Assembly (NCBI GenBank): GCA_004212075.1
Contig: RXIF01000003.1
Location: 16,073 to 48,072 of the forward strand
DNA length: 32,000 nucleotides
Reading direction: 5' to 3'
Origin: Candidatus Methanoliparum thermophilum
GTDB lineage: Archaea > Halobacteriota > Methanoliparia > Methanoliparales > Methanoliparaceae
Part shown: in pieces, positions 9,174-28,542 of the stretch
How the letters are laid out: every line of letters begins with the position of its first letter
Numbering within the stretch: position 1 is the stretch's first letter
Translations under genes and position numbers: made by a program
The notes under the pieces: model-generated
What the model was told of the DNA's origin: nothing
The model's input: only the letters and a program-made list of their open reading frames with translations
Databases searched by the model: none

Positions 9174-9461
9174 TTATTTTGATATAATATCTATCTTTAT
9201 ATCATCTTCACCGTTCTCTTTTTTCAATACAACAATAGGCTGCCTTCCATCTGCAAATATTTTCTCTGTTACAGATCTTAGATGTCCTATATCTGCAGTC
9301 TCTAAAAATTTTTCTAGTAATTCTATCCTCCTTTCGATATATGGATCGTCTATTTCGGATAAAATATACTCATCTACGATCTTCCAATAGATCTTTTTTG
9401 CCATACATTCGATACAACAATCCCGATTAGGTTTTAACTCGATTCTTATAGCATCATCCAT
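9174..9461 (-). CDS. hypothetical protein
   Basis: 95-aa ORF at the tail of the minus-strand beta-oxidation cluster. CCIEC motif and acidic helical composition. No family recognised and no close SD. Confidence 0.4.
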   Translation of the reverse strand: MDDAIRIELKPNRDCCIECMAKKIYWKIVDEYILSEIDDPYIERRIELLEKFLETADIGHLRSVTEKIFADGRQPIVVLKKENGEDDIKIDIISK

Positions 9462-9657: not shown

Positions 9658-10494
9658 TTACCATAATTCTACCATAGCATTCGAGAGAACAACGACGCCG
9701 TCTTGATTTTTGGTCTGAATTATATACTCTTTATCACTTACCTTCCAGCCTTCAGTTACGATCGTATCGCCAGGATAAACTACATTCGAGAACCTCACTT
9801 CAAACGACTTAAATCTATTAGGATCGTTATCACAAAGGTGTTTAAGAACAGCTCTTCCTGCAAAGCCATATGTACATAATCCATGTAATATCGGCCTATC
9901 GTATCCAGCTGCCTTTGCAAACTCCGGATCTATATGTAATGGATTAAGATCTCCAGATAGACGATATATCAAATTCTGATTCGGTGGTATATGCATCTCT
10001 TCTCTGAAATCAGGCTCAACTCCTTCTGGTGGAATATTACCAGCTTTTGGTGGTTTTTTACCGCCAAATCCCCCATCACCTCGAACTAAGATGGAGAATG
10101 TGTTTGTAAAGATAAGATCGCCATTACTATCTCTTGTCTCTGCATCAGCATATGTTATAGAGTGTCTTCCTGTATCGTATATATTAGAGATCTTAGCAAT
10201 CGTAGTAAGTCTACCTTCCGTTGGGATCTCCTTGTGAAGCACGATCTTCTGTCCTGCATGAAGAAGCATAACAAGATTCAAGTCTGCCTCGCCAAAACAC
10301 CATGCCATTGCAGGAAATGGCGGTATCACTGCGAATGTCGGATAAACCTTTAGATCTGTCTCATAGACAAAATTTAGATCTTCGTTGCCAGCACCGATTC
10401 CGAGAGCGTAGAGAACCACATCCTTCCATGTATATTCATACTCGATAGGTTCGGACTCTCTTCCAAGAGCATCTAAATTTACCATTTTTATCAC
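9658..10494 (-). CDS. MaoC-like double-hotdog (R)-specific enoyl-CoA hydratase (hydratase 2)
   Basis: 278 aa. YRLSGDLNPLHIDPEFA hydratase-2 motif. Length fits an N- plus C-hotdog pair as in the MFE-2 hydratase domain. Confidence 0.85.
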   Translation of the reverse strand: MIKMVNLDALGRESEPIEYEYTWKDVVLYALGIGAGNEDLNFVYETDLKVYPTFAVIPPFPAMAWCFGEADLNLVMLLHAGQKIVLHKEIPTEGRLTTIAKISNIYDTGRHSITYADAETRDSNGDLIFTNTFSILVRGDGGFGGKKPPKAGNIPPEGVEPDFREEMHIPPNQNLIYRLSGDLNPLHIDPEFAKAAGYDRPILHGLCTYGFAGRAVLKHLCDNDPNRFKSFEVRFSNVVYPGDTIVTEGWKVSDKEYIIQTKNQDGVVVLSNAMVELW

Positions 10495-10535: not shown

Positions 10536-11471
10536 TTACATTAAGAACATTGCCATCTTCGTTCCAAGATCCTCTGGCTCTACTCCTTCCATAAGTTCTT
10601 TCATTCTGGATAGCATATCTTTAACGTTCCAATTTGTATCTTCTTTCCTTATAGTCTTTATTGGATGCCATCCTTCCAACAGATCTATCCTTCCTCCCAT
10701 CACATGAAAGACTCGGCCTGTTATATCCTTTGCCTCATCACTTGCCAGATAAACAACCAAGGCAGCTACGTTCTCAGGACCGAATATATCCAGTTTTCCC
10801 TCCTCCGGTTTTTCTGCCATCATTGCACCTATAACCCCGGGTGTCTCCACTGTAAGCCTTGTTCTTGCCTGAGGAACGATACAATTTACTCTTACTCCAT
10901 ATCTTCCAAGTTCCGCCGCGGCTATTATAGAGAAAGCAGCAATACCAGCTTTTGCAGACCCATAGTTTGTCTGTCCTGGATTTCCTATTAATCCTGCATC
11001 AGATGCAGTATTGATCACGCTTGCAGATACCTGTCTTCCTGCTTTGGATTCTTCTCTCCAATAAGCTGCAGCATGTCTAGTACAATTGAACGTCCCTTTT
11101 AAATGGACTGCTATAACAGCATCCCATTCTTCCTCGCTCATATTAACCAGCATTCTATCTCTTAATATTCCTGCATTATTGACAAGAATATCCAATCTAC
11201 CGAATGTAGCAATAGTGTTATCGATCATCTTTTTAACAGCGTTATAATCTGCCACGTTTGTATAATCTGGTACGGCATCACTACCGATCTTTTTTATCTC
11301 ATTTACAACTTCTTCTGCAGGCGTTTTATCTTCCGTCATCTTATCTCTCGCCGTGCCAACATCGTTAATTACTATCTTTGCCCCCTCTTTCGCCAAAGCC
11401 AGTGCGTGTTCTCTTCCAATACCTCTTCCTGCACCTGTCACAATGGCAACCTTTCCATCTAATAAACCCAT
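10536..11471 (-). CDS. SDR-family (3R)-hydroxyacyl-CoA dehydrogenase-like oxidoreductase (MFE-2 N-terminal-domain type)
   Basis: 311 aa. TGAGRGIG Rossmann motif, NNAG and YGSAK catalytic Y/K. GGAGG SD. Confidence 0.85.
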   Translation of the reverse strand: MGLLDGKVAIVTGAGRGIGREHALALAKEGAKIVINDVGTARDKMTEDKTPAEEVVNEIKKIGSDAVPDYTNVADYNAVKKMIDNTIATFGRLDILVNNAGILRDRMLVNMSEEEWDAVIAVHLKGTFNCTRHAAAYWREESKAGRQVSASVINTASDAGLIGNPGQTNYGSAKAGIAAFSIIAAAELGRYGVRVNCIVPQARTRLTVETPGVIGAMMAEKPEEGKLDIFGPENVAALVVYLASDEAKDITGRVFHVMGGRIDLLEGWHPIKTIRKEDTNWNVKDMLSRMKELMEGVEPEDLGTKMAMFLM

Positions 11472-11806: not shown

Positions 11807-12094
11807 TTAGAGAATTCCTTTCGATGGTGCTAGATTATTGAATGCAAGGATTACTATATGGAGTATATCATCCATTACCTTATCATAATCTGGGGAATCC
11901 AGCCATTCAAGCAGATATCCTACTGTTTCCGGTGATAAGATTGCTTCTATGAATGGAACGAGCAATTCGAGTACTGGTTCTAGTGCTTTTTGTGTCAGAC
12001 TTGTCTTATATATAGCACCCACGAGATCCATCAATTGCTGACTATTCAAAAAAGGAACGACCAACTCATCCCTTAACAAATTCTCATCTCTCAT
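11807..12094 (-). CDS. small helical protein of unknown function
   Basis: 95 aa with a GAGGTG SD. It starts 10 nt after the ALDH stop. Leu/Ile/Asp-rich with no recognised family. Confidence 0.5.
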   Translation of the reverse strand: MRDENLLRDELVVPFLNSQQLMDLVGAIYKTSLTQKALEPVLELLVPFIEAILSPETVGYLLEWLDSPDYDKVMDDILHIVILAFNNLAPSKGIL

Positions 12095-12104
12095 TTAGAT
12101 CACC

Positions 12105-13614
12105 TCAATGCAGTAACATCGCCTTCATAAGCCATTTTGTCAGACCGTGCCAATCGGCATATATGCTCTTTATCTGCGTGAACTCTTTAATGCCTTCCTC
12201 AGATGCCAATCTTCCCCATCCACTCTGCTTATATCCTCCAAAAGGCATATCAGAAGATGTCATGTGCCACGTATTCACGAATATGTTACCTGCCTTTATT
12301 CTTCTGGCGACTCTTATCGCTCTCTCTTTATCTTTAGTCATTACTCCACCAGCAAGACCGTATATCGTATCGTTCGCAATCTTTATCGCCTCTTCTTCGG
12401 TCGAGAAAGGTATTATCGATATGACAGGACCAAATATCTCTTCTCTTGCAATCTTCATATCGTTCCTAACGTCGCTGAATACCGTCGGGGCAATAAAGAA
12501 TCCGTCTTTCAATTCTTCCTCTTTTAACCTATAACCACCACACAATAAGGTCGCACCTTCTTCTTTACCTGATTCTATGTATCCAAGAACCTTATTCATC
12601 TGTTCTTCCGTAACGAGTGGTCCTATGTTCGTCTTTAAGGAGAGGGCATTACCGACGTTCAAAGACCCATATATCTCTGCAGTCTTCTTTGCAACCTCTT
12701 TGTATATTTTATCCTGTACAAGGACTCTAGTTCCTGCAAAACATTCTTCACCGTTTGCAAGAGATACGCCCATCGCTGCCATTCTTGCCGCCTCTTCAAC
12801 CGGAAAGTCGTCGAAGATTATATTTGGAGACTTTCCTCCAAGCTCCAACGTCACCTTCTTAAGATTACCGATCGCGTTTTTTACGATATCCTTTCCAGTT
12901 GTTGTCTCACCAGTGAATGCTATATGATCTACCTTCTCGCTCTTAGCCATTTCAGCTCCTACTACAGATCCCGGACCTGTAACCACGTTCGAATACACCT
13001 TTCGGCAGACCCGCCCTCTCGAACATTCTTGCGATCTCTATGGCAGATAAAGGAGTCTGGCTTGCTGGTTTGAAGACAACAGTGTTTCCGCTTATCAATG
13101 CCGCCGGCAATTTCAGTGCCATCTGCCAAAATGGAACGTTCCAAGGTGTTATTAGAGCTACAACTCCATCTTGTTCCCTCAAAACTATCTGATCGATCGG
13201 AAATTCGCCATATATTCTATTCGGCTTAGCTAGATCTTCTGCCCTTGTGCAGACGTACTTGAAATTTGGACTCATATCCAAAATCGTTACGATGTGTTGC
13301 AATACAGGAACTCCGTTGCAACAAGCATCCATTTTGGAAAGATCCCAAGTCTTCTTTGCTACCATATCAGATACCTTATAGAGAATCTCACTCCTTTCCT
13401 TAATCGACATGTTTGGCCATGGTCCGTTGTCGAAAGCATCCCTTGCTGCGTCTATCGCTCTTTTTGTATCCTCAACATCACATTTCTGGCACTCTACGAA
13501 CGTTTTTCCGGTAGACGGGTTTATTATGCTATAAGTATCTCCTTTAGAAGCAGTCGTCCATTCCCCATCGATGAATACCTTTTGTTCCTCTAATCTTTCT
13601 TTATATTTTACCAT
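12105..13614 (-). pseudogene. NAD(P)-dependent aldehyde dehydrogenase interrupted by a single-base frameshift
   Basis: Two overlapping ORFs, 13614-12952 and 12998-12105, together make one full-length ALDH. The N-terminal part ends ...AGLPKGVF, then an out-of-frame tail. The C-terminal frame resumes NVVTGPGSVVG. ELGGKSP and the catalytic Cys context (GEECFAGTR) are intact. The shift maps to about 12987-12996 (GTATTCGAAC on the coding strand). Confidence 0.85.
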
Positions 13615-13666
13615 CTTATTACCTCATGTTTTTACTTCTCTTTTACTTTCAAGATTAAAATTTGCA

Positions 13667-13861
13667 TTACAGATTTACCCCCATCAATCCACCCAAAGAG
13701 TTCACAACCCTTCTTGTCAAACTGATCGGGCAGAGTCCAGCCTCCACCAAGGATTTCAGCAGATCTTTAAGCATAGGCGGAAGCAAATCTATCAACATGT
13801 CTCTTATCCTCTCTGCGATCTCTAAAATCTTGTCCAATACTGATATAAGACTTTTTGACAT
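13667..13861 (-). CDS. small amphipathic helical protein of unknown function
   Basis: 64 aa with a GGAGGTG SD 5 nt upstream of the ATG. Sequence SLISVLDKILEIAERIRDMLIDLLPPMLKDLLKSLVEAGL. Confidence 0.55.
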   Translation of the reverse strand: MSKSLISVLDKILEIAERIRDMLIDLLPPMLKDLLKSLVEAGLCPISLTRRVVNSLGGLMGVNL

Positions 13862-13876
13862 CTTATCACCTCCTAT

Positions 13877-14590
13877 TTAAGTGGGAGTGCCGAATAAAGA
13901 ATCAAACATCTTGGTTAGAGCCTCAAGTAAAGGACTGAATCCTTTGTCCTTTGGAAGAACTGACTCTATAAGACCGGATAGTAGATCACCTATCTTCACA
14001 CTCTCAAGCAATCCTTTTATTAATTTTAAGAGATTATTAAATAATAAACCTATCATTTTCGGATTAACCAGAGCAGGAATTCCAATTTTTATAATATCTC
14101 CGATCGTTCTTCCCAATGTTTCATCATCTATTGAAGATAGAAGATCATAAACAAAACCAGATATAATATCAGAAAGCATTTTTGTATCTTTTTCGAGAAG
14201 AGATGAAAGGAAAGTCAATATGCTATTTATACCTTCAACGATTGTGTCTATATCTATTTCCCTTATTATACTTCCTATATCTATACTTGAAAGTATCGTA
14301 GTAGGAAGACTTCTTTGTAGAGTTTTACCTAATTCATTGAGTACCTCACCGATAGTATTTACAAGCGGGATAATCGCTCCTCCTATATCCGCAAGAACCT
14401 CTATATCTCCCCATATAAGTGTTCTAATCAATTTTGATGCGGATTTTGGATCTATCTCACTTAAAATCTCTCTTAATATCTGTTTTACGAAAGGCGTAGC
14501 TATTATATCTGCTAAAATTCTGTCTACCAAATCGATAATCCCTTTCTCTCCTTTTTTTATTTCTATCTCTTTTTCATCCATTTTTATCAC
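13877..14590 (-). CDS. Ile/Leu/Asp/Ser-rich low-complexity helical protein of unknown function
   Basis: 237 aa. A GTG at 14590 abuts the ACAD stop, and the ATG at 14581 is an alternative start. No motif recognised. Composition resembles the neighbouring small proteins. Confidence 0.6.
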   Translation of the reverse strand: MIKMDEKEIEIKKGEKGIIDLVDRILADIIATPFVKQILREILSEIDPKSASKLIRTLIWGDIEVLADIGGAIIPLVNTIGEVLNELGKTLQRSLPTTILSSIDIGSIIREIDIDTIVEGINSILTFLSSLLEKDTKMLSDIISGFVYDLLSSIDDETLGRTIGDIIKIGIPALVNPKMIGLLFNNLLKLIKGLLESVKIGDLLSGLIESVLPKDKGFSPLLEALTKMFDSLFGTPT

Positions 14591-15865
14591 TTACAAAGTC
14601 TCACACTCATAGAACCATCTTGCAGTCTCCATCTCACAAATTTGTTTGCCCCCCATCCAGAGCTGTATCATTTTTACATCTCTCCATTGTTTTTCTATAT
14701 CATGATCTCTATCGTATCCGTGTATCCCTAAAATATCCATAGCTTCGCTACAAACTTCGTTACATCTCTCACATACGAAAAGTTTTGTTGCTCTTGATTT
14801 TGCACGGATCTCTGAACTAAAATAAGACCCATATTGATCAGGTCTATCGATCATTCGGGCAAATTGGCGAGCCATTAAATGGGATGCCTCTATTTTTGCT
14901 GTAATATCTGACAAGACGCCTGCAATCGCATCATTCTCTTTCAACGGTCTTCCATGATACGTCTTTTTAGAAACGTACTCTTTCAAAATCTCATAAACAT
15001 TCTTCATTGCTCCTACACAATAACTTATAGATCCAAGGACGCCTATATTATCTAAAGTAGACTTGAAGAATACCATATCCTCTCCAGGTCCACAAGCTCT
15101 ATAATAATCAGGAACTCTTACATTATCAAACCAGATATCTGTATTCAAATCAGCCGCCATACCAGCTTTATGATATGGTTCTCCCCTTTTAACCCCCGGT
15201 TTATCTGCCGGAACCATTATTACAGCTAAATCACGATCGTCCGTCGATCCTCTTTTTGTTGTACAGATAACACCATAGAGATCTGCTTCTGCAGAGTTTG
15301 TAGGCCAGAGCTTATGCCCGTTTATTACCCATTCGTTACCATCCAATTCTGCTGTCGTCTGTATGGTTCTTCCATGTTCTATCTCAGTATTTTCTATATC
15401 AGATCCTCCTTGTGGCTCGGTCATGGCCATACAAGCTATTACAGGTTTATCGCTTTTTGTATATAGATTAGAGATCTCTTCAAGCAACCTCTCGTTCCTT
15501 CTCATCGGCAAGAATGCTATCATAAAATTTGACCAACCAATTCCACAACCAAATGCGACAGCTAATCCGGTATCAGCTCTAGCTATTTCTTCCATTACCA
15601 CATAAGCCGCAGTACCTATCCAATTTGATCCGCCAACATTCCATCCTCCATACTCTGCTGGCCATAGAAACCTTTGCGCACCTATATCTACAAACAACTT
15701 CTGATAAAAGGATTCTATACGTGGGTTATGTCTCCATTCTTCGTCGAACGTTCTTCTATAAGGCATAATCTCTTTATCTACAAGGCTTCTAACTATTTTT
15801 TTCAACAATTTTTCAATAGGTGCCTCATATTCTTTAGGAACTGTAAAATCGTCTATCGTTCTCAT
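14591..15865 (-). CDS. acyl-CoA dehydrogenase-fold protein (atypical)
   Basis: 424 aa. ACAD signature-1-like AMTEPQGGSD and C-terminal EKQWRDVKMIQLWMGG. Met occupies the MCAD-type catalytic Glu position. Confidence 0.8.
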   Translation of the reverse strand: MRTIDDFTVPKEYEAPIEKLLKKIVRSLVDKEIMPYRRTFDEEWRHNPRIESFYQKLFVDIGAQRFLWPAEYGGWNVGGSNWIGTAAYVVMEEIARADTGLAVAFGCGIGWSNFMIAFLPMRRNERLLEEISNLYTKSDKPVIACMAMTEPQGGSDIENTEIEHGRTIQTTAELDGNEWVINGHKLWPTNSAEADLYGVICTTKRGSTDDRDLAVIMVPADKPGVKRGEPYHKAGMAADLNTDIWFDNVRVPDYYRACGPGEDMVFFKSTLDNIGVLGSISYCVGAMKNVYEILKEYVSKKTYHGRPLKENDAIAGVLSDITAKIEASHLMARQFARMIDRPDQYGSYFSSEIRAKSRATKLFVCERCNEVCSEAMDILGIHGYDRDHDIEKQWRDVKMIQLWMGGKQICEMETARWFYECETL

Positions 15866-15872
15866 TTATCAC

Positions 15873-17117
15873 CTATATGTTTTTACATTCAAAAAAGTAT
15901 CTCGTAACATCCATCTTTGCGGGTATTTCTCCCCCAATCATATTTTTTATAGATTTAACATCTCTCCAATGTTTCTCAATATTTCCCTCTCTTGCATAGC
16001 CTTCCGATGCCATGGTCTCCATTGCTTTATTTATTGCTTCACATGAAGCATTCATAACCGTTAAAGATATCGACCTTGCAGTCGAAAAGACATCATCATT
16101 CCAGCTTTCTCCATAAATTTCAGGCTTAGCTAAAATTCTGGCAAGGTTATGTGTTAATAATCTGGAAGATACGATATCTTTCGACACATCAGCATAGACA
16201 GCAGCAACCAAAGGGTTCTCTTTCAAAGTTTGATCATAATGAATCACTCTATCGGTTCCCCATCTTTTAGCTGTCTCGTATACATCCATTATAGAACCAA
16301 CGCACAAAGCGCTATCACATAGTGCCTTCCATGACAATATCTCTTTGATAACTTTCATATCGGATCCTTTCCATACTACATACTTCTTCGGAAGTTTTAT
16401 CTTATCAAACGAAAGATCTGCATTCTTATCCGAATTTAAACCCGTCTTAAAAAATGTTTTGCCACGCTTGATTCCTGAAGTATTTTCTGGAACCAGTACA
16501 TAGAGTAAATCTCCATCGCCTGCTGAAGATATAACGCCAAACATATTTGCCGTACTACCAGAATTTATTGGACGTACATTCCTACCATTTAGGATAACTC
16601 CATCATCTCTCAATTCAGCAGTTACTTGTGCGGTCAAACCATAAAAATCATCATCCGTTCTTATTTCAGGATCACCAAAATCAGGCAAAATTAATGATAC
16701 CGTCTTAATATCATTTGATTTACAAAACAACGGTGCAAGCTCCGAACAAAGCTCATCATTGATATCTGGCTCCAATATTATAGGCAAAAGAGAGCAAAAA
16801 GTATTGGCAAAAATGAATCCTATCCCAGAATCTGCTCTTGATATCTCTTCTAGTACCCTGACTAACATACTCGAGACAGCAGGAGTATTCAATCCTTCTC
16901 CACCATACTTCTCGGGCCACACCATCTTCTGGAGCCCAATTTCTACGAATAGCTTCTTCATCGCAGGTCCGACGAGCTTGTCTTCATAATCTTCATCGAA
17001 CTCCTGCCTATTCGGCATTACTTCCTTATCCGCCCAATCCCTGACACTATCGGCAAGCGTCTCGTCCTCCTCGGTCACCCACTCCTTTGGATAAAGGAAA
17101 ACATCTTTTTTTACCAT
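15873..17117 (-). CDS. acyl-CoA dehydrogenase-fold paralog (degenerate)
   Basis: 414 aa and colinear with the neighbouring ACAD (EKHWRDVKSIKNMIGG). Signature 1 is degenerate (SLILPDFGDPE). Ile occupies the catalytic Glu position. Confidence 0.7.
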   Translation of the reverse strand: MVKKDVFLYPKEWVTEEDETLADSVRDWADKEVMPNRQEFDEDYEDKLVGPAMKKLFVEIGLQKMVWPEKYGGEGLNTPAVSSMLVRVLEEISRADSGIGFIFANTFCSLLPIILEPDINDELCSELAPLFCKSNDIKTVSLILPDFGDPEIRTDDDFYGLTAQVTAELRDDGVILNGRNVRPINSGSTANMFGVISSAGDGDLLYVLVPENTSGIKRGKTFFKTGLNSDKNADLSFDKIKLPKKYVVWKGSDMKVIKEILSWKALCDSALCVGSIMDVYETAKRWGTDRVIHYDQTLKENPLVAAVYADVSKDIVSSRLLTHNLARILAKPEIYGESWNDDVFSTARSISLTVMNASCEAINKAMETMASEGYAREGNIEKHWRDVKSIKNMIGGEIPAKMDVTRYFFECKNI

Positions 17118-17139
17118 CTTATTGCCTCTTTATCTTTAA

Positions 17140-17346
17140 TTACGCTGATGTGAATCTAGCAATTATATCGAAAAATGTTTTTACTATTGTCTCAAGAAAA
17201 GTGCCTTTAAACAAAGATTCCATAGAAGATCTGAAAGTACTTATTAACGCGTTAATTATCGGTTTTATCATGGACCAAACCGCTTTAAGCAGATTTATCA
17301 CTGTTTGTATGATGTTTCCTCCGGAAAAACCTTCTTCTTCACTCAT
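17140..17346 (-). CDS. small amphipathic helical protein of unknown function
   Basis: 68 aa from ATG 17346 (MSEEEGFSGGNIIQTVINLLKAVW...), preceded by GGAGGAGGAG. The ORF-track TTG start at 17364 would translate that SD. First gene of the ACAD operon. Confidence 0.55.
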   Translation of the reverse strand: MSEEEGFSGGNIIQTVINLLKAVWSMIKPIINALISTFRSSMESLFKGTFLETIVKTFFDIIARFTSA

Positions 17347-17806
17347 TTTAATCTCCTCCTCCAAAATTTATATTTTTATTTTTGACCAGTTCATTCTTAA
17401 TTTACCTATGTTTTTTAGTATATTTTCTAATATTTAAATATATTCATTAATATCTCATTTTATAATGTCAAATTAAGAATAGGAATGCTAAGCAATTCTA
17501 TAAAACAAAAGCCTACTTTATCTCCTCGACCCAGTACCTTTAACCGGATAACAGTTTAGGGCAACATTACGACCCCTCTCTTTTATCCTGCTGTCGAATC
17601 CTTCGTTGAATGCATCCTTTATGTACTCCATAATGTGCAGTAATTCACGGTTTGTATCCATTACAGAAGAACCGAGTACGTGGCATCTACGTTCAACTTC
17701 TTCTCTACCTTTATCTTCTTAAGAATGAAATCCAGCACTATACTTTTATTTTTAGCATACTCATAAAACGAAAAGATTATAGCATAGAATTTACTTTATC
17801 ATCACG

Positions 17807-18475
17807 ATGGAGAAATTAAAATTAGGAGTACTTGTTTCTGGACGAGGGACTGATCTACAATCGATATTGGATGCGTCTGAAGAAGGGAAGATAAACGCAG
17901 AGGTAAGAGTAGTTATAAGTAATAACAAAGATGCTTATGCATTAGAGAGAGCAAAAAAACATAATATCGACGGAATATATATAGAGACTAAAGGAAGAGA
18001 GAGAGAGGATTACGAGAAAGATATTGATTTAATCTTAAAAAATTATGGAGCAGATTTGGTAATAGGTGCAGGATGGATGAAAATTCTCACTCCATTCTTT
18101 GTAAGAAGATGGAGAGGAAGATTGATAAACATACATCCTTCGTTATTGCCATCTTTTCCCGGTACTTCAGGTCAAAAGGATTCGTTGGAGTATGGAGTGA
18201 AAATAACTGGATGCACTACTCATTTTATGAGTGAGACCGTGGATAGTGGGCCTATAATATTACAAGCGGCTGTATTGGTAAGAGATGATGATACGATAGA
18301 GACATTGACTCAACGAATTTTAGAAGTTGAGCATCAGATACTACCACGAACGATAGACCTCTTCGAACAGAACAGAATAGTTATCGAGGGACGAAGAGTA
18401 AAAATATTGCCTGGAGATTCATGGAGACTTAAATATCCAGTAATTGATGATGTATTATATAGCTATGGATATTAG
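17807..18475 (+). CDS. purN: phosphoribosylglycinamide formyltransferase (folate-dependent)
   Basis: 222 aa. LGVLVSGRGTDLQ, INIHPSLLP and the GCTTHF motif. Confidence 0.9.
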   Translation: MEKLKLGVLVSGRGTDLQSILDASEEGKINAEVRVVISNNKDAYALERAKKHNIDGIYIETKGREREDYEKDIDLILKNYGADLVIGAGWMKILTPFFVRRWRGRLINIHPSLLPSFPGTSGQKDSLEYGVKITGCTTHFMSETVDSGPIILQAAVLVRDDDTIETLTQRILEVEHQILPRTIDLFEQNRIVIEGRRVKILPGDSWRLKYPVIDDVLYSYGY

Positions 18476-19736
18476 AGAAGATTTAGACTGGTTTCTTTCA
18501 TTAAATAAGTTTGGGACTAAATTAGGATTAGAACGGATAGAAAGATTGTTAAAATGTCTTGGTAATCCTGAAAAGAGTTACAAGATAATACATGTTGGAG
18601 GTACAAACGGAAAAGGGTCTACCTGTACTTATATAGGATCTATCCTCAAAGAGGCAGGATATAAGACAGGAATATATACCTCTCCTGATTTAGGTAGAAG
18701 GGAAGAAAGATTCTCTGTCGATGGTGAATATATCAAGCGGGATGAATTTTTAAGTTTGATACGAGAGGTAAGACCTTATGCAGAAGAGATTAATGCAACA
18801 ATATTCGAGGTTGAGACGGCTATTGCATTAAGCTATTTTCAATTTAAAAGAGTTGATTTTGCTATTTTAGAGGTAGGTCTTGGTGGTAGATTGGATGCTA
18901 CAAATGTGGTACTACCTGTAGTCTCGGTAATAACGAACGTTTCTAAAGATCATACCAACATTCTGGGTGATAAAATAGAGGATATAGCCTACGAAAAGGC
19001 AGGTATTATAAAAAAAGGTGTTCCTATCGTTACAGGATGCACAGGAAAGGCTTTATCGGTTGTAGAGAGAGTAGCATCTGAAAAAGGCGCTCAAGTAGTG
19101 AAGAGAGCAAAATATAAAAGGATATCATTAAACAAAGACTATCAGACCTTCTTAATCGATAACTATATATTGAATACAAGACTAATGGGTAGATACCAAG
19201 GAGAAAACTTATCCGTGGTAATAGCTGTTATCAATTGTTTAAGAGATTTGGGATATAACATCTCTGATAAAAATATATTGGAAGGAGTTTTTAAATCTGA
19301 TATAAAAGGAAGAATGGAGTTTATTGAGGATAATATCATTCTTGATGGAGCACATAATGTAAAAGGAATAGAATATCTGTTTAAATCTTTAAGAGATTAT
19401 AGATACGATAAGCTTATTCTGGTTATAGGGATATTGGGAGATAAAGATATAGACGGTATGATTGAGAGGATGAAAGCAGATTTAGCGATAATAACACGAT
19501 CAAAAAATCCGAGAAGCGAGAATCCTAAAGATCTATCAAAAAAATTTAAAAACATTCATAAGGATACAAGATTGTTTGTTATGGAAGACCTTAAGAATGC
19601 AATATATATGGCAAAAAAAATTGCGTCTAAAAGGGATATTATATGTATTACAGGATCGCTTTATCTGGTAGGAGAGGCGAGAGAGATATTGATACAGAGA
19701 CGAACCAAGGATACTCTCTTGTCTATAAACGGTTAA
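18465..19736 (+). CDS. folC: folylpolyglutamate synthase/dihydrofolate synthase
   Basis: Mur-ligase P-loop HVGGTNGKGST and DGAHN. Start chosen at ATG 18465 (MDIREDL); the ORF-track start 18444 lies deeper inside purN. Confidence 0.88.
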   Translation: MDIREDLDWFLSLNKFGTKLGLERIERLLKCLGNPEKSYKIIHVGGTNGKGSTCTYIGSILKEAGYKTGIYTSPDLGRREERFSVDGEYIKRDEFLSLIREVRPYAEEINATIFEVETAIALSYFQFKRVDFAILEVGLGGRLDATNVVLPVVSVITNVSKDHTNILGDKIEDIAYEKAGIIKKGVPIVTGCTGKALSVVERVASEKGAQVVKRAKYKRISLNKDYQTFLIDNYILNTRLMGRYQGENLSVVIAVINCLRDLGYNISDKNILEGVFKSDIKGRMEFIEDNIILDGAHNVKGIEYLFKSLRDYRYDKLILVIGILGDKDIDGMIERMKADLAIITRSKNPRSENPKDLSKKFKNIHKDTRLFVMEDLKNAIYMAKKIASKRDIICITGSLYLVGEAREILIQRRTKDTLLSING

Positions 19737-20587
19737 TGAGGACTTTAGATATCTGTTCGCATGAAAATCACGAAAGGAGCAAGACCGCTATTATGGGAGT
19801 ATTGAATGTGACACCAGACTCGTTTTATGATGGAGGAAGATTTTTCAATGTCGATCTGGCTGTTATGCATGGTTTGGAACTCATCGATGCAGGTGCAGAT
19901 ATATTGGATATTGGTGGAGAATCTACCCGCCCAGGATCGATACCTATAGATGCAAAAGAAGAGATCGATCGGGTTATTCCTGTTATAAAGATTCTTGGTG
20001 AGATAACAGATATACCGATCTCTATCGATACTTATAAGAGCGAGGTTGCCGAGACAGCGATAAAATACGGTGCAACGATGATAAACGATATAAGTGCTCT
20101 TCGTTTTGATGAAGATATGGGAGATATCGCGGCAGAATACGACCTTCCAATATCTCTAATGCATATGCAAGGAATACCGAGAGATATGCAGGTAAATCCA
20201 CAGTATAGAGATATTATGCAGGAGATAATCTATTTTTTTAAAGAAAGAATGGATTTTGCAATTGAAAAAGGAATATCTGAAGATAAGATTATCATAGACC
20301 CCGGAATAGGTTTTGGAAAGAGAACTGGGGATGGAATAGAAGATAACTGTACCATTCTCAAGAGATTAAGAGAGCTTAAATCTTTGAATAAGCCTATATT
20401 GGTTGGTACATCCAGAAAAACGTTTATCAGCAATATATGCAATGAATCATCACCTGAAGATCGGTTAATAGGCAGTCTTGCCACAGTAGCAATAGCAGTG
20501 GCGAATGGGGCTGACATAGTGAGAGTTCATGATGTAAGAGAGACGAAAGACGTTGTCGATGTGGTATCCAACATCTGTCGAAGATAG
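19736..20587 (+). CDS. folP: dihydropteroate synthase
   Basis: IMGVLNVTPDSFYDGG, DIGGESTRPG and VHDV. Start at ATG 19736 overlaps the folC stop (TAATG). Confidence 0.9.
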   Translation: MRTLDICSHENHERSKTAIMGVLNVTPDSFYDGGRFFNVDLAVMHGLELIDAGADILDIGGESTRPGSIPIDAKEEIDRVIPVIKILGEITDIPISIDTYKSEVAETAIKYGATMINDISALRFDEDMGDIAAEYDLPISLMHMQGIPRDMQVNPQYRDIMQEIIYFFKERMDFAIEKGISEDKIIIDPGIGFGKRTGDGIEDNCTILKRLRELKSLNKPILVGTSRKTFISNICNESSPEDRLIGSLATVAIAVANGADIVRVHDVRETKDVVDVVSNICRR

Positions 20588-26973: not shown

Positions 26974-28176
26974 ATGAAGAAAAAGATACTGTTTATCGTT
27001 TTAGACGGTGCTGCCGATCGGCCTGTTTTAATCGATGGAGAAAAAAAGACGCCGTTTAGCGACGCTAATCTTAGGAATATAAACCAGATAGCAAGAGATG
27101 GCATAAACGGTATTATGGATGTAATATCTCCTGGAATACCTCCAGGATCAGATGTTGGGCATTTATCCCTTCTTGGATACGATCCTTATCGGATTTATAC
27201 CGGTCGTGGACCATTAGAGGCTATAGGTGCCGGAATAAGCGTTAAAAAAGGAGATTTAGCGTTTAGATGCAATTTTGCTACGTATAAAGATGGTATAATC
27301 TTAGATAGGCGGGCAGGAAGGATCAACGATACCGACGGGTTGGCAGAAGCTATAGAACAGAATGTAAAACTAAAGGTTGATTTTTTGTTTAAAAGATCGG
27401 CGGGTCATAGGGCTGCATTGGTTCTTAGAGGTGATGGATTGAGTTATAAAATTACAGACGTCGATCCTGGGAGTGATAATCTACCGTTAAAAAAGGCTGA
27501 ACCTTTGGATGAGACGGCAGAAAAAACAGCTGAGATTTTGAACGATTTTGTCGAGCAGAGCATCAAGATTTTATCCAACCATCCGATAAACGAGGAGAGA
27601 AAGAAGAGAGGACTGCCAATAGCAAACGTGATTCTTCCGCGTGGTGCTGGTATTGTGCCTGTTGTTGAAAAATTCGAAGAAAAATATGGATTAAAAGGTG
27701 CTGCAGTTGCCGCAACAGGATTGGTCATAGGCATATCGAGATTATGTGGGCTTGATTTTACTTATACGGAGGGTGCAACAGGAAGTATCGATACCAACAT
27801 AGATAACAAGGTGAAGAACGCACTTGAGTTACTGGACACCCATGATTTTGTACTGATGAATATAAAAGGTACCGATGAGGCAGGACACGATAGAGATTTT
27901 TTAAAAAAGAAAAGATTTTTAGAGAGGATAGACGCCGCATTCGAAAGGCTGGTTGGATTGAAGGACACGATTATCGTTATTACTTCGGATCATGCTACTC
28001 CTGTATCGGTAGGAGATCATACAGGCGATCCTGTGCCGATCTGTATATCTGGTGAAGGCGTGCGGGCTGATAAGGTAAAGAGGTTTAACGAGTTTGAATG
28101 TGCAAATGGTGGATTGGGCAGGATTAGAGGAAAAGATCTGATGCCCATCTTATTAAGGTATCAAGTTATCGATTAG
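26974..28176 (+). CDS. apgM: 2,3-bisphosphoglycerate-independent phosphoglycerate mutase, archaeal type
   Basis: 400 aa. ILFIVLDGAADRP, KGTDEAGHD and ITSDHATP. Confidence 0.9.
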   Translation: MKKKILFIVLDGAADRPVLIDGEKKTPFSDANLRNINQIARDGINGIMDVISPGIPPGSDVGHLSLLGYDPYRIYTGRGPLEAIGAGISVKKGDLAFRCNFATYKDGIILDRRAGRINDTDGLAEAIEQNVKLKVDFLFKRSAGHRAALVLRGDGLSYKITDVDPGSDNLPLKKAEPLDETAEKTAEILNDFVEQSIKILSNHPINEERKKRGLPIANVILPRGAGIVPVVEKFEEKYGLKGAAVAATGLVIGISRLCGLDFTYTEGATGSIDTNIDNKVKNALELLDTHDFVLMNIKGTDEAGHDRDFLKKKRFLERIDAAFERLVGLKDTIIVITSDHATPVSVGDHTGDPVPICISGEGVRADKVKRFNEFECANGGLGRIRGKDLMPILLRYQVID

Positions 28177-28542
28177 CTTCCAAGCCGCATCTAAAAACGC
28201 CTTTGTAGATCCATCAACGTACGCCGCGTTGACTTCAACAGGACCGAGGATAATCAAAACTATCTCTGTTATGTTGTGGGAAAGACTCTTCCAAAAAGAA
28301 CAAAAATTAGCAGTAAAGAAGCCGGCTAAAAATTCAGTAACTAAAGCGCCTATGGGGATAGTTATAACTTCTCCTAGTCCCACCGTCACCGGGATCGTCG
28401 GGAGCCCTAGTATGGCTCCTATGCCTCCTCCTGGTAACCATCCAAGCAAAAGAGCAAGAAGTTCAGTAACTAAACCGCCTATAATGCCTGGGAAACCCAA
28501 GAAGCAAGAACTACAGCCTATGATACATTTGAGAATGTCCAT
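28153..28542 (-). CDS. Gly-rich hydrophobic membrane protein, last gene of the small-peptide array
   Basis: 129 aa. N-terminus MDILKCIIGCSSCFLG resembles those of the upstream peptides. Glycine-zipper-like GGIGAILGLPTIPVTVGLG. The ATG lies 6 nt after the upstream stop. The 3' end overlaps the apgM 3' end convergently by 24 nt. Confidence 0.6.
   Translation of the reverse strand: MDILKCIIGCSSCFLGFPGIIGGLVTELLALLLGWLPGGGIGAILGLPTIPVTVGLGEVITIPIGALVTEFLAGFFTANFCSFWKSLSHNITEIVLIILGPVEVNAAYVDGSTKAFLDAAWKLIDNLIP

Follow-up and report, generated by a model that had tools for sequence, protein, structure and literature searches.

A conserved helical protein family encoded next to an atypical pair of acyl-CoA dehydrogenase-like proteins in Candidatus Methanoliparum

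Introduction

The closest described paired acyl-CoA dehydrogenases (ACADs) are the alpha2beta2 enzymes of cholesterol catabolism in Mycobacterium tuberculosis, FadE26-FadE27/ChsE4-ChsE5 and ChsE1-ChsE2. To our knowledge, these mycobacterial heteromers have no third, non-ACAD helical subunit. Here, we analyze an operon on the minus strand of a 32,000-nt stretch of the genome of Candidatus Methanoliparum thermophilum (GenBank assembly GCA_004212075.1, contig RXIF01000003.1, positions 16,073 to 48,072; hereafter, the window), in which two adjacent paralogous ACAD-like genes, ACAD2 and ACAD1, are followed by the gene of a helical protein of 237 aa, designated HEL or p237. As in FadE26/27, one of the two paralogs is more degenerate, here ACAD2, and genes of MaoC-type hydratases are located nearby. 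Unlike FadE26/27, both ACAD-like proteins of the window appear to lack a recognizable catalytic glutamate. Their similarity to any characterized ACAD is low (at most 128 bits), and a heteromer of the two is predicted.

ACADs with separately encoded partners, as proposed for the window, are represented by butyryl-CoA dehydrogenase-EtfAB (PDB 5ol2), the caffeyl-CoA reductase CarCDE (6fah), and the complex I assembly factor ACAD9 (8phe), and the ACADs of these three structures were found among the PDB matches of ACAD1. The Etf and CarE partners carry FAD or Fe-S and have known folds, whereas HEL has no cofactor motif, Pfam domain, or fold match; etf genes are absent from the 32-kb window. For comparison at the level of gene clusters, the relevant systems are clostridial hadAIBC-acdB-etfBA and fldAIBC (2-hydroxyacyl-CoA dehydratase) and the cluster of class I benzoyl-CoA reductase (BCR). 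We know of no HEL counterpart in the clostridial and benzoyl-CoA reductase operons. They resemble most relatives of the operon described here, in which the ACAD2-ACAD1-HEL trio is followed by two HGD-D genes and one or two genes of BcrAD/BadFG ATPases. In contrast to these clusters, the HGD-D and BcrAD genes are absent in the window, as are CoA-transferase and Etf, and the relatives have in addition genes of a CdhC-like protein of ~240 aa and a CooC-like ATPase, with Ni/Co uptake genes in L010 and L013 (L-numbers are the labels of compared contigs or loci).

Candidatus Methanoliparum is an alkylotrophic methanogen (PMC11376074; PMC6703427), whose growth on C13+ alkanes and long-chain alkyl hydrocarbons has been described (PMC11376074). 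The steps leading from alkyl-coenzyme M (alkyl-CoM) to acyl-CoA in this organism were explicitly stated to be unknown (PMC10322722); alcohol and aldehyde dehydrogenases are proposed for them in PMC6703427.

Organization of the operon

Seven closely packed open reading frames (ORFs) occupy the minus strand from 17346 to 11807 in the order p68-ACAD2-ACAD1-HEL-p64-ALDH-p95, where ALDH is an aldehyde dehydrogenase. Coordinates refer to the whole window unless prefixed by a locus label.

17140-17346, minus strand: p68, 68 aa, ATG start, GGAGGAGG Shine-Dalgarno sequence
15873-17117, minus strand: ACAD2, 414 aa, divergent ACAD-like subunit (Pfam)
14591-15865, minus strand: ACAD1, 424 aa, well-conserved ACAD-like subunit (Pfam)
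13877-14590, minus strand: HEL ORF, 237 aa; 13877-14581 encodes 234 aa from ATG
13667-13861, minus strand: p64, 64 aa, own AGGAGGTGA Shine-Dalgarno sequence
12105-13614, minus strand: ALDH (PF00171) with a +1 frameshift; N-terminal part 12952-13614, C-terminal part 12105-12998
12989-12991, minus strand: site of the ALDH frameshift, extra base in GTATTCGAACGTG
11807-12094, minus strand: p95, 95 aa, acidic, helical, pI 3.9, GAGGTGAT Shine-Dalgarno sequence

From p68 to p95, the intergenic gaps were 22, 7, 0-9, 15, 52, and 10 nt. The Shine-Dalgarno sequences GGAGGAGG, AGGAGGTGA, and GAGGTGAT were located 5-8 nt ahead of the starts of p68, p64, and p95, respectively. An earlier sequence-only reading of this DNA had given the same gene order, strand, lengths, and spacing of the seven-gene operon, and both the gaps of 0-52 nt and the Shine-Dalgarno sequences of three small genes that it reported were borne out. 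The ALDH, which it had taken as a single ORF, turned out to be split in two by one extra base near 12990. None of the four small proteins had been recognized in that reading, and searches of p68, p64, HEL, and p95 against Pfam and NCBIfam agreed with this, giving no match for any of them. In both databases, the identities of the ACADs and the ALDH were confirmed. The true start of HEL is likely ATG 14581 (234 aa), since all homologues begin with MDEK or MGE.

HEL accompanies the ACAD-like pair in distantly related genomes

A word-indexed search with p237 returned only two homologues, of 302 and 304 aa. When ACAD2 homologues were traced into their contigs, a protein of 302-557 aa without Pfam match was located directly behind ACAD1 each time. 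Comparison with the proteins of L009, L014, L015, and L101 showed that p237 is homologous to them across an N-terminal module of ~110-150 aa, with 30-42% identity and E-values of 1e-15 to 1e-22. The consensus of this module is KG[IV]ID..DR[IV]L....TP..K..L...L..IDPKSA..L..TL.W.D.E, and p237 belongs to the family by this pattern.

A scan of genome contigs with ACAD2 patterns found nothing, whereas an ACAD1 alignment scanned across GTDB species genomes returned ~40 orthologous loci. Besides the window, 35 related loci had ACAD2 and ACAD1 side by side as a pair. All loci were translated into six-frame ORFs, which were searched by phmmer and then counted, the count set being the loci with adjacent ACAD2 and ACAD1 and at least 600 nt downstream (n = 34). 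One to four HEL-matching ORFs were located directly behind the pair in 33 of the 34 loci. Among 13 ACAD1-like loci without ACAD2, 12 had no HEL, and in the thirteenth, L020, ACAD2 is cut by the contig edge. ORF distances in the HEL loci were mostly small, from an overlap of a few tens of nt to ~50 nt; in the window, HEL follows ACAD1 at 0-9 nt. The loci belong to Geothermincolia/Anoxymicrobiaceae and other Actinomycetota, Bacillota/Syntrophomonadaceae, Dehalococcoidales, Syntrophaceae/Smithella and other Thermodesulfobacteriota, Archaeoglobi, Methanoliparia, and uncultured archaea. The trio is thus found from bacteria to archaea, at a GC content of 31-55% and at ACAD2 identities as low as 33%.

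The lone exception, L012 (61% ACAD2 identity), has kept only a truncated beginning of HEL (TDEKDIETKRGKS), next to a transposase gene. This stub has 38 codons (L012:2609-2725), and the DDE transposase gene (L012:3838-4452) lies ~1.1 kb downstream. The loss of HEL in L012 is probably a truncation mediated by an insertion sequence, and the stub indicates that the gene was ancestrally present there. In L014, L015, L039, and L040, the ACAD2-ACAD1-HEL trio stands alone, with no HGD-type genes within 6-10 kb; HEL therefore tracks the ACAD pair and not the reductase-like genes. The sequence-only reading had proposed that the non-enzymatic proteins work with the enzymes as partners rather than being random insertions, and this is strongly supported for HEL, which is present in 33/34 loci and absent where ACAD2 is absent. 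The co-occurrence with ACAD genes that it had named as a check on the small proteins holds for HEL and does not extend to p68 and p64.

A protein of ~140 aa with four transmembrane segments (4-TM) and without Pfam match was encoded among the HEL genes in L014 (L014:13766-14170), L025, L026, L032, and L043. The loci with this protein are mostly of Actinomycetota, and on the short contig L052 it is located directly behind ACAD1. The recurrence of the 4-TM protein hints at a membrane-associated complex.

Characteristics of the HEL family

A profile search with HEL among 1.84 billion representatives yielded 542 clusters at E ≤ 1e-3 and 338 at E ≤ 1e-10. None of 57 HEL members matched Pfam, the best E-value against PDB sequences was 0.19, which we regard as no match, and the homologues are called hypothetical in databases. 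Neither a cofactor motif nor a nucleotide- or metal-binding motif was found in HEL. Profile searches of the four small proteins thus revealed a large family for HEL, and no annotated family for any of them. With an alignment of 57 sequences, the AlphaFold2 model of HEL had 12 helices and a mean pLDDT of 77; a model from 10 sequences (pLDDT 36) was unusable. HEL is a real, widespread, and unannotated all-alpha family. Literature searches for the ACAD, HGD, and CdhC/CooC cluster and for a third ACAD subunit found nothing relevant, and the searchable literature gave no account of HEL, of paired ACADs with a third, helical partner, or of the ACAD-HGD-CdhC-CooC cluster.

Residues 1-195 of HEL form a conserved body, which is acidic (pI 4.3), and residues 196-234 are the start of tail repeats (KIGDLLSGLIES...). 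The tails have a pI of 10.4-11.2 and a grand average of hydropathy of 0.9-1.2, being basic and hydrophobic, opposite to the acidic body. The proteins are all-alpha and rich in Ile and Leu, with high helical hydrophobic moments (muH, 0.5-0.75). Among loci, both the number of HEL-matching ORFs (1-4) and their length (140-600 aa) vary, and internal repeats are present in the long forms; such variation would be expected of a scaffold.

The ACAD-like proteins

ACAD1 contains all three ACAD domains (PF02771/PF02770/PF00441) above the Pfam cut-offs. In ACAD2, the N-terminal (52 bits) and C-terminal (34 bits) domains pass the cut-offs, and 23.9 bits vs. a cut-off of 33.3 were obtained for the middle domain. 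Orthologues of ACAD1 are 48-56% identical and were found in ~30 GTDB species; between archaea and bacteria, the identity is 50-56%. ACAD2 is highly divergent, and a search of 5.8 billion proteins gave only 29 clusters of homologues at E < 1e-20.

In the alignment with PDB 3pfd, QLWMGGKQ of ACAD1 corresponds to QIYEGTNQ, so that the catalytic Glu (IYEGT) is replaced by Met, and this replacement was present in 9/9 aligned orthologues, both bacterial and archaeal. In the PDB alignment of ACAD2, KNMIGGEI stands where the catalytic YEGT (with E376 of MCAD) would be expected. No conserved acidic residue was detected at the helix-G position, used in IVD/LCAD, in the nine aligned orthologues. As judged from these alignments, both ACAD-like subunits are without the canonical catalytic glutamate. 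The motifs AMTEPQGGSD and NGHKLWPTNS are conserved in ACAD1, which is only suggestive of FAD binding and acyl-CoA dehydrogenation. The best NCBIfam score was 128 bits, far under the equivalog cut-offs of 470-650. Because the canonical Glu is absent and the NCBIfam scores are low, the pair is perhaps not acyl-CoA dehydrogenating and may catalyze chemistry other than the classical reaction.

Two types of module in Methanoliparia

The HGD-type clusters that follow the trio in most loci are exemplified by the following regions.

L010:9708-16717: HGD-type cluster
L013:14204-21242: HGD-type cluster
L009:10929-18147: HGD-type cluster
L001:3781-8621: HGD-type cluster

They comprise two HGD-D genes, one or two BcrAD/BadFG ATPase genes, the ~240-aa CdhC-like protein, and the CooC-like ATPase; L010 and L013 additionally contain FUR, DUF8180, CooT, and CbiM. 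The CdhC-like protein is a stand-alone protein similar to the A-cluster part of acetyl-CoA synthase. The whole ACAD-HEL-HGD-CdhC-CooC cluster looks like an uncharacterized, possibly nickel-dependent, anaerobic pathway. In the 32-kb window, genes of HGD-D and of the BcrAD activator ATPase are absent, and ALDH and p95 are located in their place.

Both arrangements were observed in Methanolliviera-like contigs, as ACAD2-ACAD1-HEL(321 aa)-HGD in L175 and ACAD1-HEL(281 aa)-ALDH-p95 in L101. Methanoliparum-like contigs likewise contain ACAD2-ACAD1-HEL(302/304 aa)-HGD-BcrAD-CdhC-CooC (L001, L007) as well as the ALDH type of the window. Methanoliparia therefore have two paralogous module types, of which the ALDH type is derived and has been conserved as a variant in this class.

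Aldehyde dehydrogenase and p95

The two ALDH fragments match positions 1-186 and 187-461 of the 461 positions of the Pfam model and together give a full-length family match. The motifs ELGGKSP with the catalytic Glu and EECFAG with the catalytic Cys are present in the translation. The reading frame is interrupted by the extra base in GTATTCGAACGTG. This base is kept in L017, which is 100% identical to the window. L016 (99.94%) reads GTATTCG-ACGTG (VFDVV) and is in frame at the site; L174 (99.2%, another sample) reads GTATT-GAACGTG (VLNVV), and its ALDH is one gene running to the contig end. L016 and L174 thus each lack a different single base. The ALDH of Methanolliviera L101 is intact. Since the site is polymorphic between strains, the break is a recent strain-level mutation, or possibly an assembly difference, and not a feature of the module. 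Programmed frameshifting in ALDH, as well as read-through of the TAA stop codon of HEL, was considered and rejected, as no supporting signal was found.

L016, a contig from DRR326763, has four single-base deletions relative to the window, at 15186, 13230, 12989, and 11986, which break ACAD1, ALDH (at a second site), and p95. Such a pattern is typical of an error-prone assembly, and the gene calls of this contig are not to be taken as pseudogenes.

A scan of metagenome contigs with p95 found nothing; its homologue was reached via the ALDH orthologues. This homologue (L101:2698-3030, RZN71973.1, 110 aa) belongs to Candidatus Methanolliviera hydrocarbonicum and is 42-44% identical to p95 (Smith-Waterman score 190, z 27). 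It is encoded behind the ALDH, in the order ACAD1-HEL(281 aa)-intact ALDH-p95. Closer ALDH orthologues in other contexts (L099, L100) are without p95. p95 showed no relation to HEL and no match in Pfam (E ≤ 10) or PDB. The UniRef label DUF1641 of RZN71973.1 was rejected, as PF07849 was not matched by p95 or its homologue in Pfam-A at E ≤ 10; probably, the label over-annotates the protein or was taken from another signature database. In Methanoliparia, the p95 gene is conserved as a partner of the ALDH-type module, in line with the partner idea of the sequence-only reading.

The small proteins p68 and p64

In Smith-Waterman comparisons of p68 with the C-terminal tails of the close HEL relatives P0002 and P0003, z was 5.5-6.2, and 0/1000 shuffles reached the score; with the tail of Methanolliviera L101, z was 4.6. 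The likeness is limited to the tail of the closest HEL relatives, and the HEL family profile is not matched. By its sequence, p68 resembles a free-standing copy of the hydrophobic, proline-punctuated tail module of these relatives. The exact p68 protein is present on 6 contigs. Upstream of ACAD2 in more distant loci, no p68-like ORF was detected.

The stop codon TAA of HEL is in frame with the ATG of p64 located 15 nt downstream, with AGGAGGTGA between them (13862-13879), and this arrangement, not noted in the sequence-only reading, is kept in L016, L017, L018, and L174. The relatives have a fused tail of 40-110 aa at the position of p64. It appears that a once longer HEL tail has been split here. 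The start of p64 is tail-like (KSLISVLDKIL vs. IGDLLSGLIES). Comparison of p64 with P0002 and P0003 gave z of 0.7-1.4, indistinguishable from shuffles, the comparison with the Methanolliviera L101 tail was marginal (z 4.2, 2/500 shuffles), and hhalign gave a weak P of 0.006. p64 is probably a split-off continuation of the HEL tail. Together, p237 and p64 could be a simple nonsense-split orthologue of the 302/304-aa relatives, and the lengths fit (237+5+64); this explanation was rejected, since p64 gave no significant alignment with the C-termini of these relatives.

A single family for the four small proteins was also rejected: BLASTP, phmmer with shuffles, and hhalign showed common composition only, except for the similarity of p68 to the tails. 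Thus, of the single class in which the sequence-only reading had placed them, the common composition stands and common ancestry does not; p237 belongs to a large family, and p95 is unrelated.

Genomic context and host

Downstream of the operon, two context genes of beta-oxidation type are located on the same strand.

10536-11471, minus strand: short-chain dehydrogenase/reductase (SDR) of PRK07791 type, 311 aa; NF005861, 404 bits vs. cut-off 373
9658-10494, minus strand: (R)-specific enoyl-CoA hydratase of MFE-2 type, beta-oxidation context; MFE-2_hydrat-2_N and MaoC domains (Pfam)

The SDR is probably a 3-hydroxyacyl-CoA dehydrogenase. AT-rich gaps separate the operon from its neighbors, one of 335 nt between p95 and the SDR gene and one of ~440 nt between the operon and the divergent purN/folC genes. 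On the plus strand, 17807-20587 contains overlapping genes of a PurN-like formyltransferase, a FolC-like protein of the Mur-ligase family, and a pterin-binding protein of DHPS type, divergent from the operon; this string belongs to folate/pterin-type metabolism in a methanogen-related archaeon. The ORFs 9174-9461 (minus strand, 95 aa), directly downstream of the gene of the MaoC-type hydratase, and 28153-28542 (minus strand, 129 aa) are without Pfam match, and neither resembles HEL above chance. Scans for tRNA, Rfam families, and sigma-70 promoters/terminators were uninformative.

The window encodes the archaeal markers aIF5A, DUF2119, Kae1, a RIO-type (Bud32-like) kinase, S15 with an S13_N domain, and S3Ae. 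Its S3Ae falls into the 90% cluster of BDC36578.1 (Candidatus Methanoliparum sp. LAM-1), and the exact p68, p64, p95, ACAD1, ACAD2, and SDR proteins share one NCBI contig with the LAM-1 S3Ae. The region is one operon of Candidatus Methanoliparum. The sequence-only reading had guessed, conditionally, at an alkane- or fatty-acid-oxidizing archaeon as the host, and rightly so, since this organism degrades alkanes and alkyl hydrocarbons to methane.

Discussion

We propose, with a probability of about 0.5, that HEL is a non-catalytic structural subunit (scaffold, adaptor, or tether) of a heteromeric ACAD-like flavoenzyme. The core would be a conserved three-part module of ACAD2, ACAD1, and HEL, in which the paralogous flavoprotein subunits ACAD2 and ACAD1 probably assemble into a heteromer, like the subunits of other paired ACADs. 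HEL of Methanoliparia appears to end in a basic, hydrophobic tail of amphipathic repeats punctuated by proline or glycine, through which the complex would be anchored to the membrane or a hydrophobic interface. The separate 4-TM protein could take on this anchoring in several loci of Actinomycetota type. In the strain of the window, the HEL tail would be fragmented, with an in-frame TAA, p64 restarting behind it, and p68 as a second tail-like module. p95 may be an accessory protein specific to the ALDH-type module. We infer a physical association of HEL with the ACAD pair, its tethering role, and any function of p64 and p68.

Several observations weigh against this proposal. Foldseek comparison of the HEL model with PDB gave no match at E ≤ 10; since no structural analogue was found, the term scaffold is drawn from context and composition. 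A role of HEL in substrate binding, assembly, or regulation is equally conceivable. The maximal 19-residue hydropathy is 1.6-1.8 in the tails of the relatives, but only 1.0-1.5 in p64, p68, and p237, which is borderline for membrane binding. The occurrence of p68 and p64 is confined to strains sharing at least 99% identity with the window. The nearest divergent locus, L001, has a frame-disrupted and shortened counterpart of p68 upstream of ACAD2 (L001:87-291), with the N-terminal part in one frame, the conserved C-terminal part KGTFLEPIVRMGLNMIDRFTAA, running to the stop, in another, and the middle missing; by the refuting condition that the sequence-only reading had set, this speaks against p68 as a partner of the enzymes. 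In the ~99% strains L018 and L174, p64 has three nonsynonymous and no synonymous differences and a C-terminal frameshift resulting in 61 aa.

A first alternative, a possible one in our tentative estimate, is that p68 and p64 are not functional partners but decaying or neutral fragments of HEL tails (a split ORF and a stray duplicate) in an eroding locus, leaving HEL and p95 as the only real accessory genes. The disrupted p68 of L001, the differences and frameshift in p64 of L174, and the lack of homologues beyond nearly identical strains are what decay would produce. The same is true of the absence of p68-like ORFs upstream of ACAD2 in distant loci, the frameshifted ALDH of the same operon, and the location of p64, which continues the HEL frame past a TAA at the place of the fused tail of relatives. 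Against decay, the Shine-Dalgarno sequences of p64 and p68 are strong and properly spaced, both ORFs are uninterrupted in several assemblies independent of one another, and p68 shows zero differences over the 131 nt covered by L174, a strain contig with 99.2% identity. Moreover, the similarity of p68 to the tails is still statistically clear, and split or multi-gene HEL arrangements are normal in other lineages.

It is unlikely, although worth consideration, that HEL, possibly with p68, p64, and p95, represents amphipathic helical carriers that solubilize or bind strongly hydrophobic substrates (long-chain acyl or alkyl compounds) and deliver them to the enzyme, in line with the solubilizing role considered in the sequence-only reading. 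The all-alpha, Ile/Leu-rich nature of the proteins, their hydrophobic moments, and the variable number of HEL repeats would fit such a role. HEL shares with phasins, apolipoproteins, and perilipins an all-alpha structure of repetitive amphipathic helices in variable repeat number, and its host lives on oil. The growth of the host on C13+ alkanes and long-chain alkyl hydrocarbons (PMC11376074) and the finding of Candidatus Methanoliparia cells with oil droplets, reported in PMC6703427, point in the same direction, and many of the other genomes with HEL are metagenome-assembled genomes of Syntrophaceae/Smithella, Archaeoglobi, and Dehalococcoidales. However, HEL has no sequence, profile, or structural similarity to phasins, apolipoproteins, or perilipins, and no sequence, profile, or fold match to lipid-binding families was found. 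Its body is strongly acidic and predicted to be a folded helical domain, not long uninterrupted amphipathic helices. Strict 1:1 synteny with one enzyme pair suits a subunit better than a general carrier.

That HEL instead serves the downstream enzymes as an adaptor of the BCR/HGD-like reductase, or acts in assembly, as a chaperone, in regulation, or in flavin or metal maturation, without being an ACAD subunit, appears improbable: most loci do continue with HGD-D, BcrAD ATPase, CdhC-like, and CooC-like genes, and ACAD-fold assembly proteins with adaptor partners exist (the complex I assembly factor ACAD9 is among the PDB matches of ACAD1), but the trio occurs without HGD-type genes within 6-10 kb in L014, L015, L039, L040, and the window, HEL always adjoins the ACAD genes and not the HGD genes, and it has no nucleotide- or metal-binding motif and no Pfam match.

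As to the pathway served by a HEL-containing flavoenzyme, the ALDH-type module (the Glu-less ACAD pair, HEL, ALDH, and p95) might conceivably be part of the route from alkyl-CoM to fatty acid or acyl-CoA in Methanoliparia, although we consider this highly improbable. The flavoenzyme, which would be incapable of the classical alpha,beta-dehydrogenation of thioesters, would oxidize the carbon beside the thioether sulfur of a long-chain alkyl-CoM that HEL holds at the membrane or oil interface, and the aldehyde released would then be oxidized by the co-encoded ALDH. Because the core trio is widespread in bacteria, such a role is unlikely to be its general function. In a broader form of this reading, the ACAD-like/HEL/BCR-like/CdhC-like/CooC cluster would represent an undescribed anaerobic nickel-enzyme pathway, taking in Syntrophaceae, Actinomycetota, Bacillota, Archaeoglobi, and Methanoliparia.

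Both the pairing of ACADs and their association with accessory subunits are known from other systems. In Candidatus Methanoliparum, a single cell of which can turn long-chain alkanes and alkyl-substituted hydrocarbons into methane, the operon joins an ALDH, an atypical ACAD-like pair apparently without the catalytic base, and two conserved uncharacterized proteins in one transcription unit. This work also flags a larger uncharacterized gene cluster with BCR-like, CdhC-like, and CooC components. HEL itself is an unannotated family of more than 500 clusters with a near-invariant gene neighborhood across anaerobic bacteria and archaea, and this makes it a specific candidate, amenable to testing, for an accessory subunit of a new kind in flavin enzymes.

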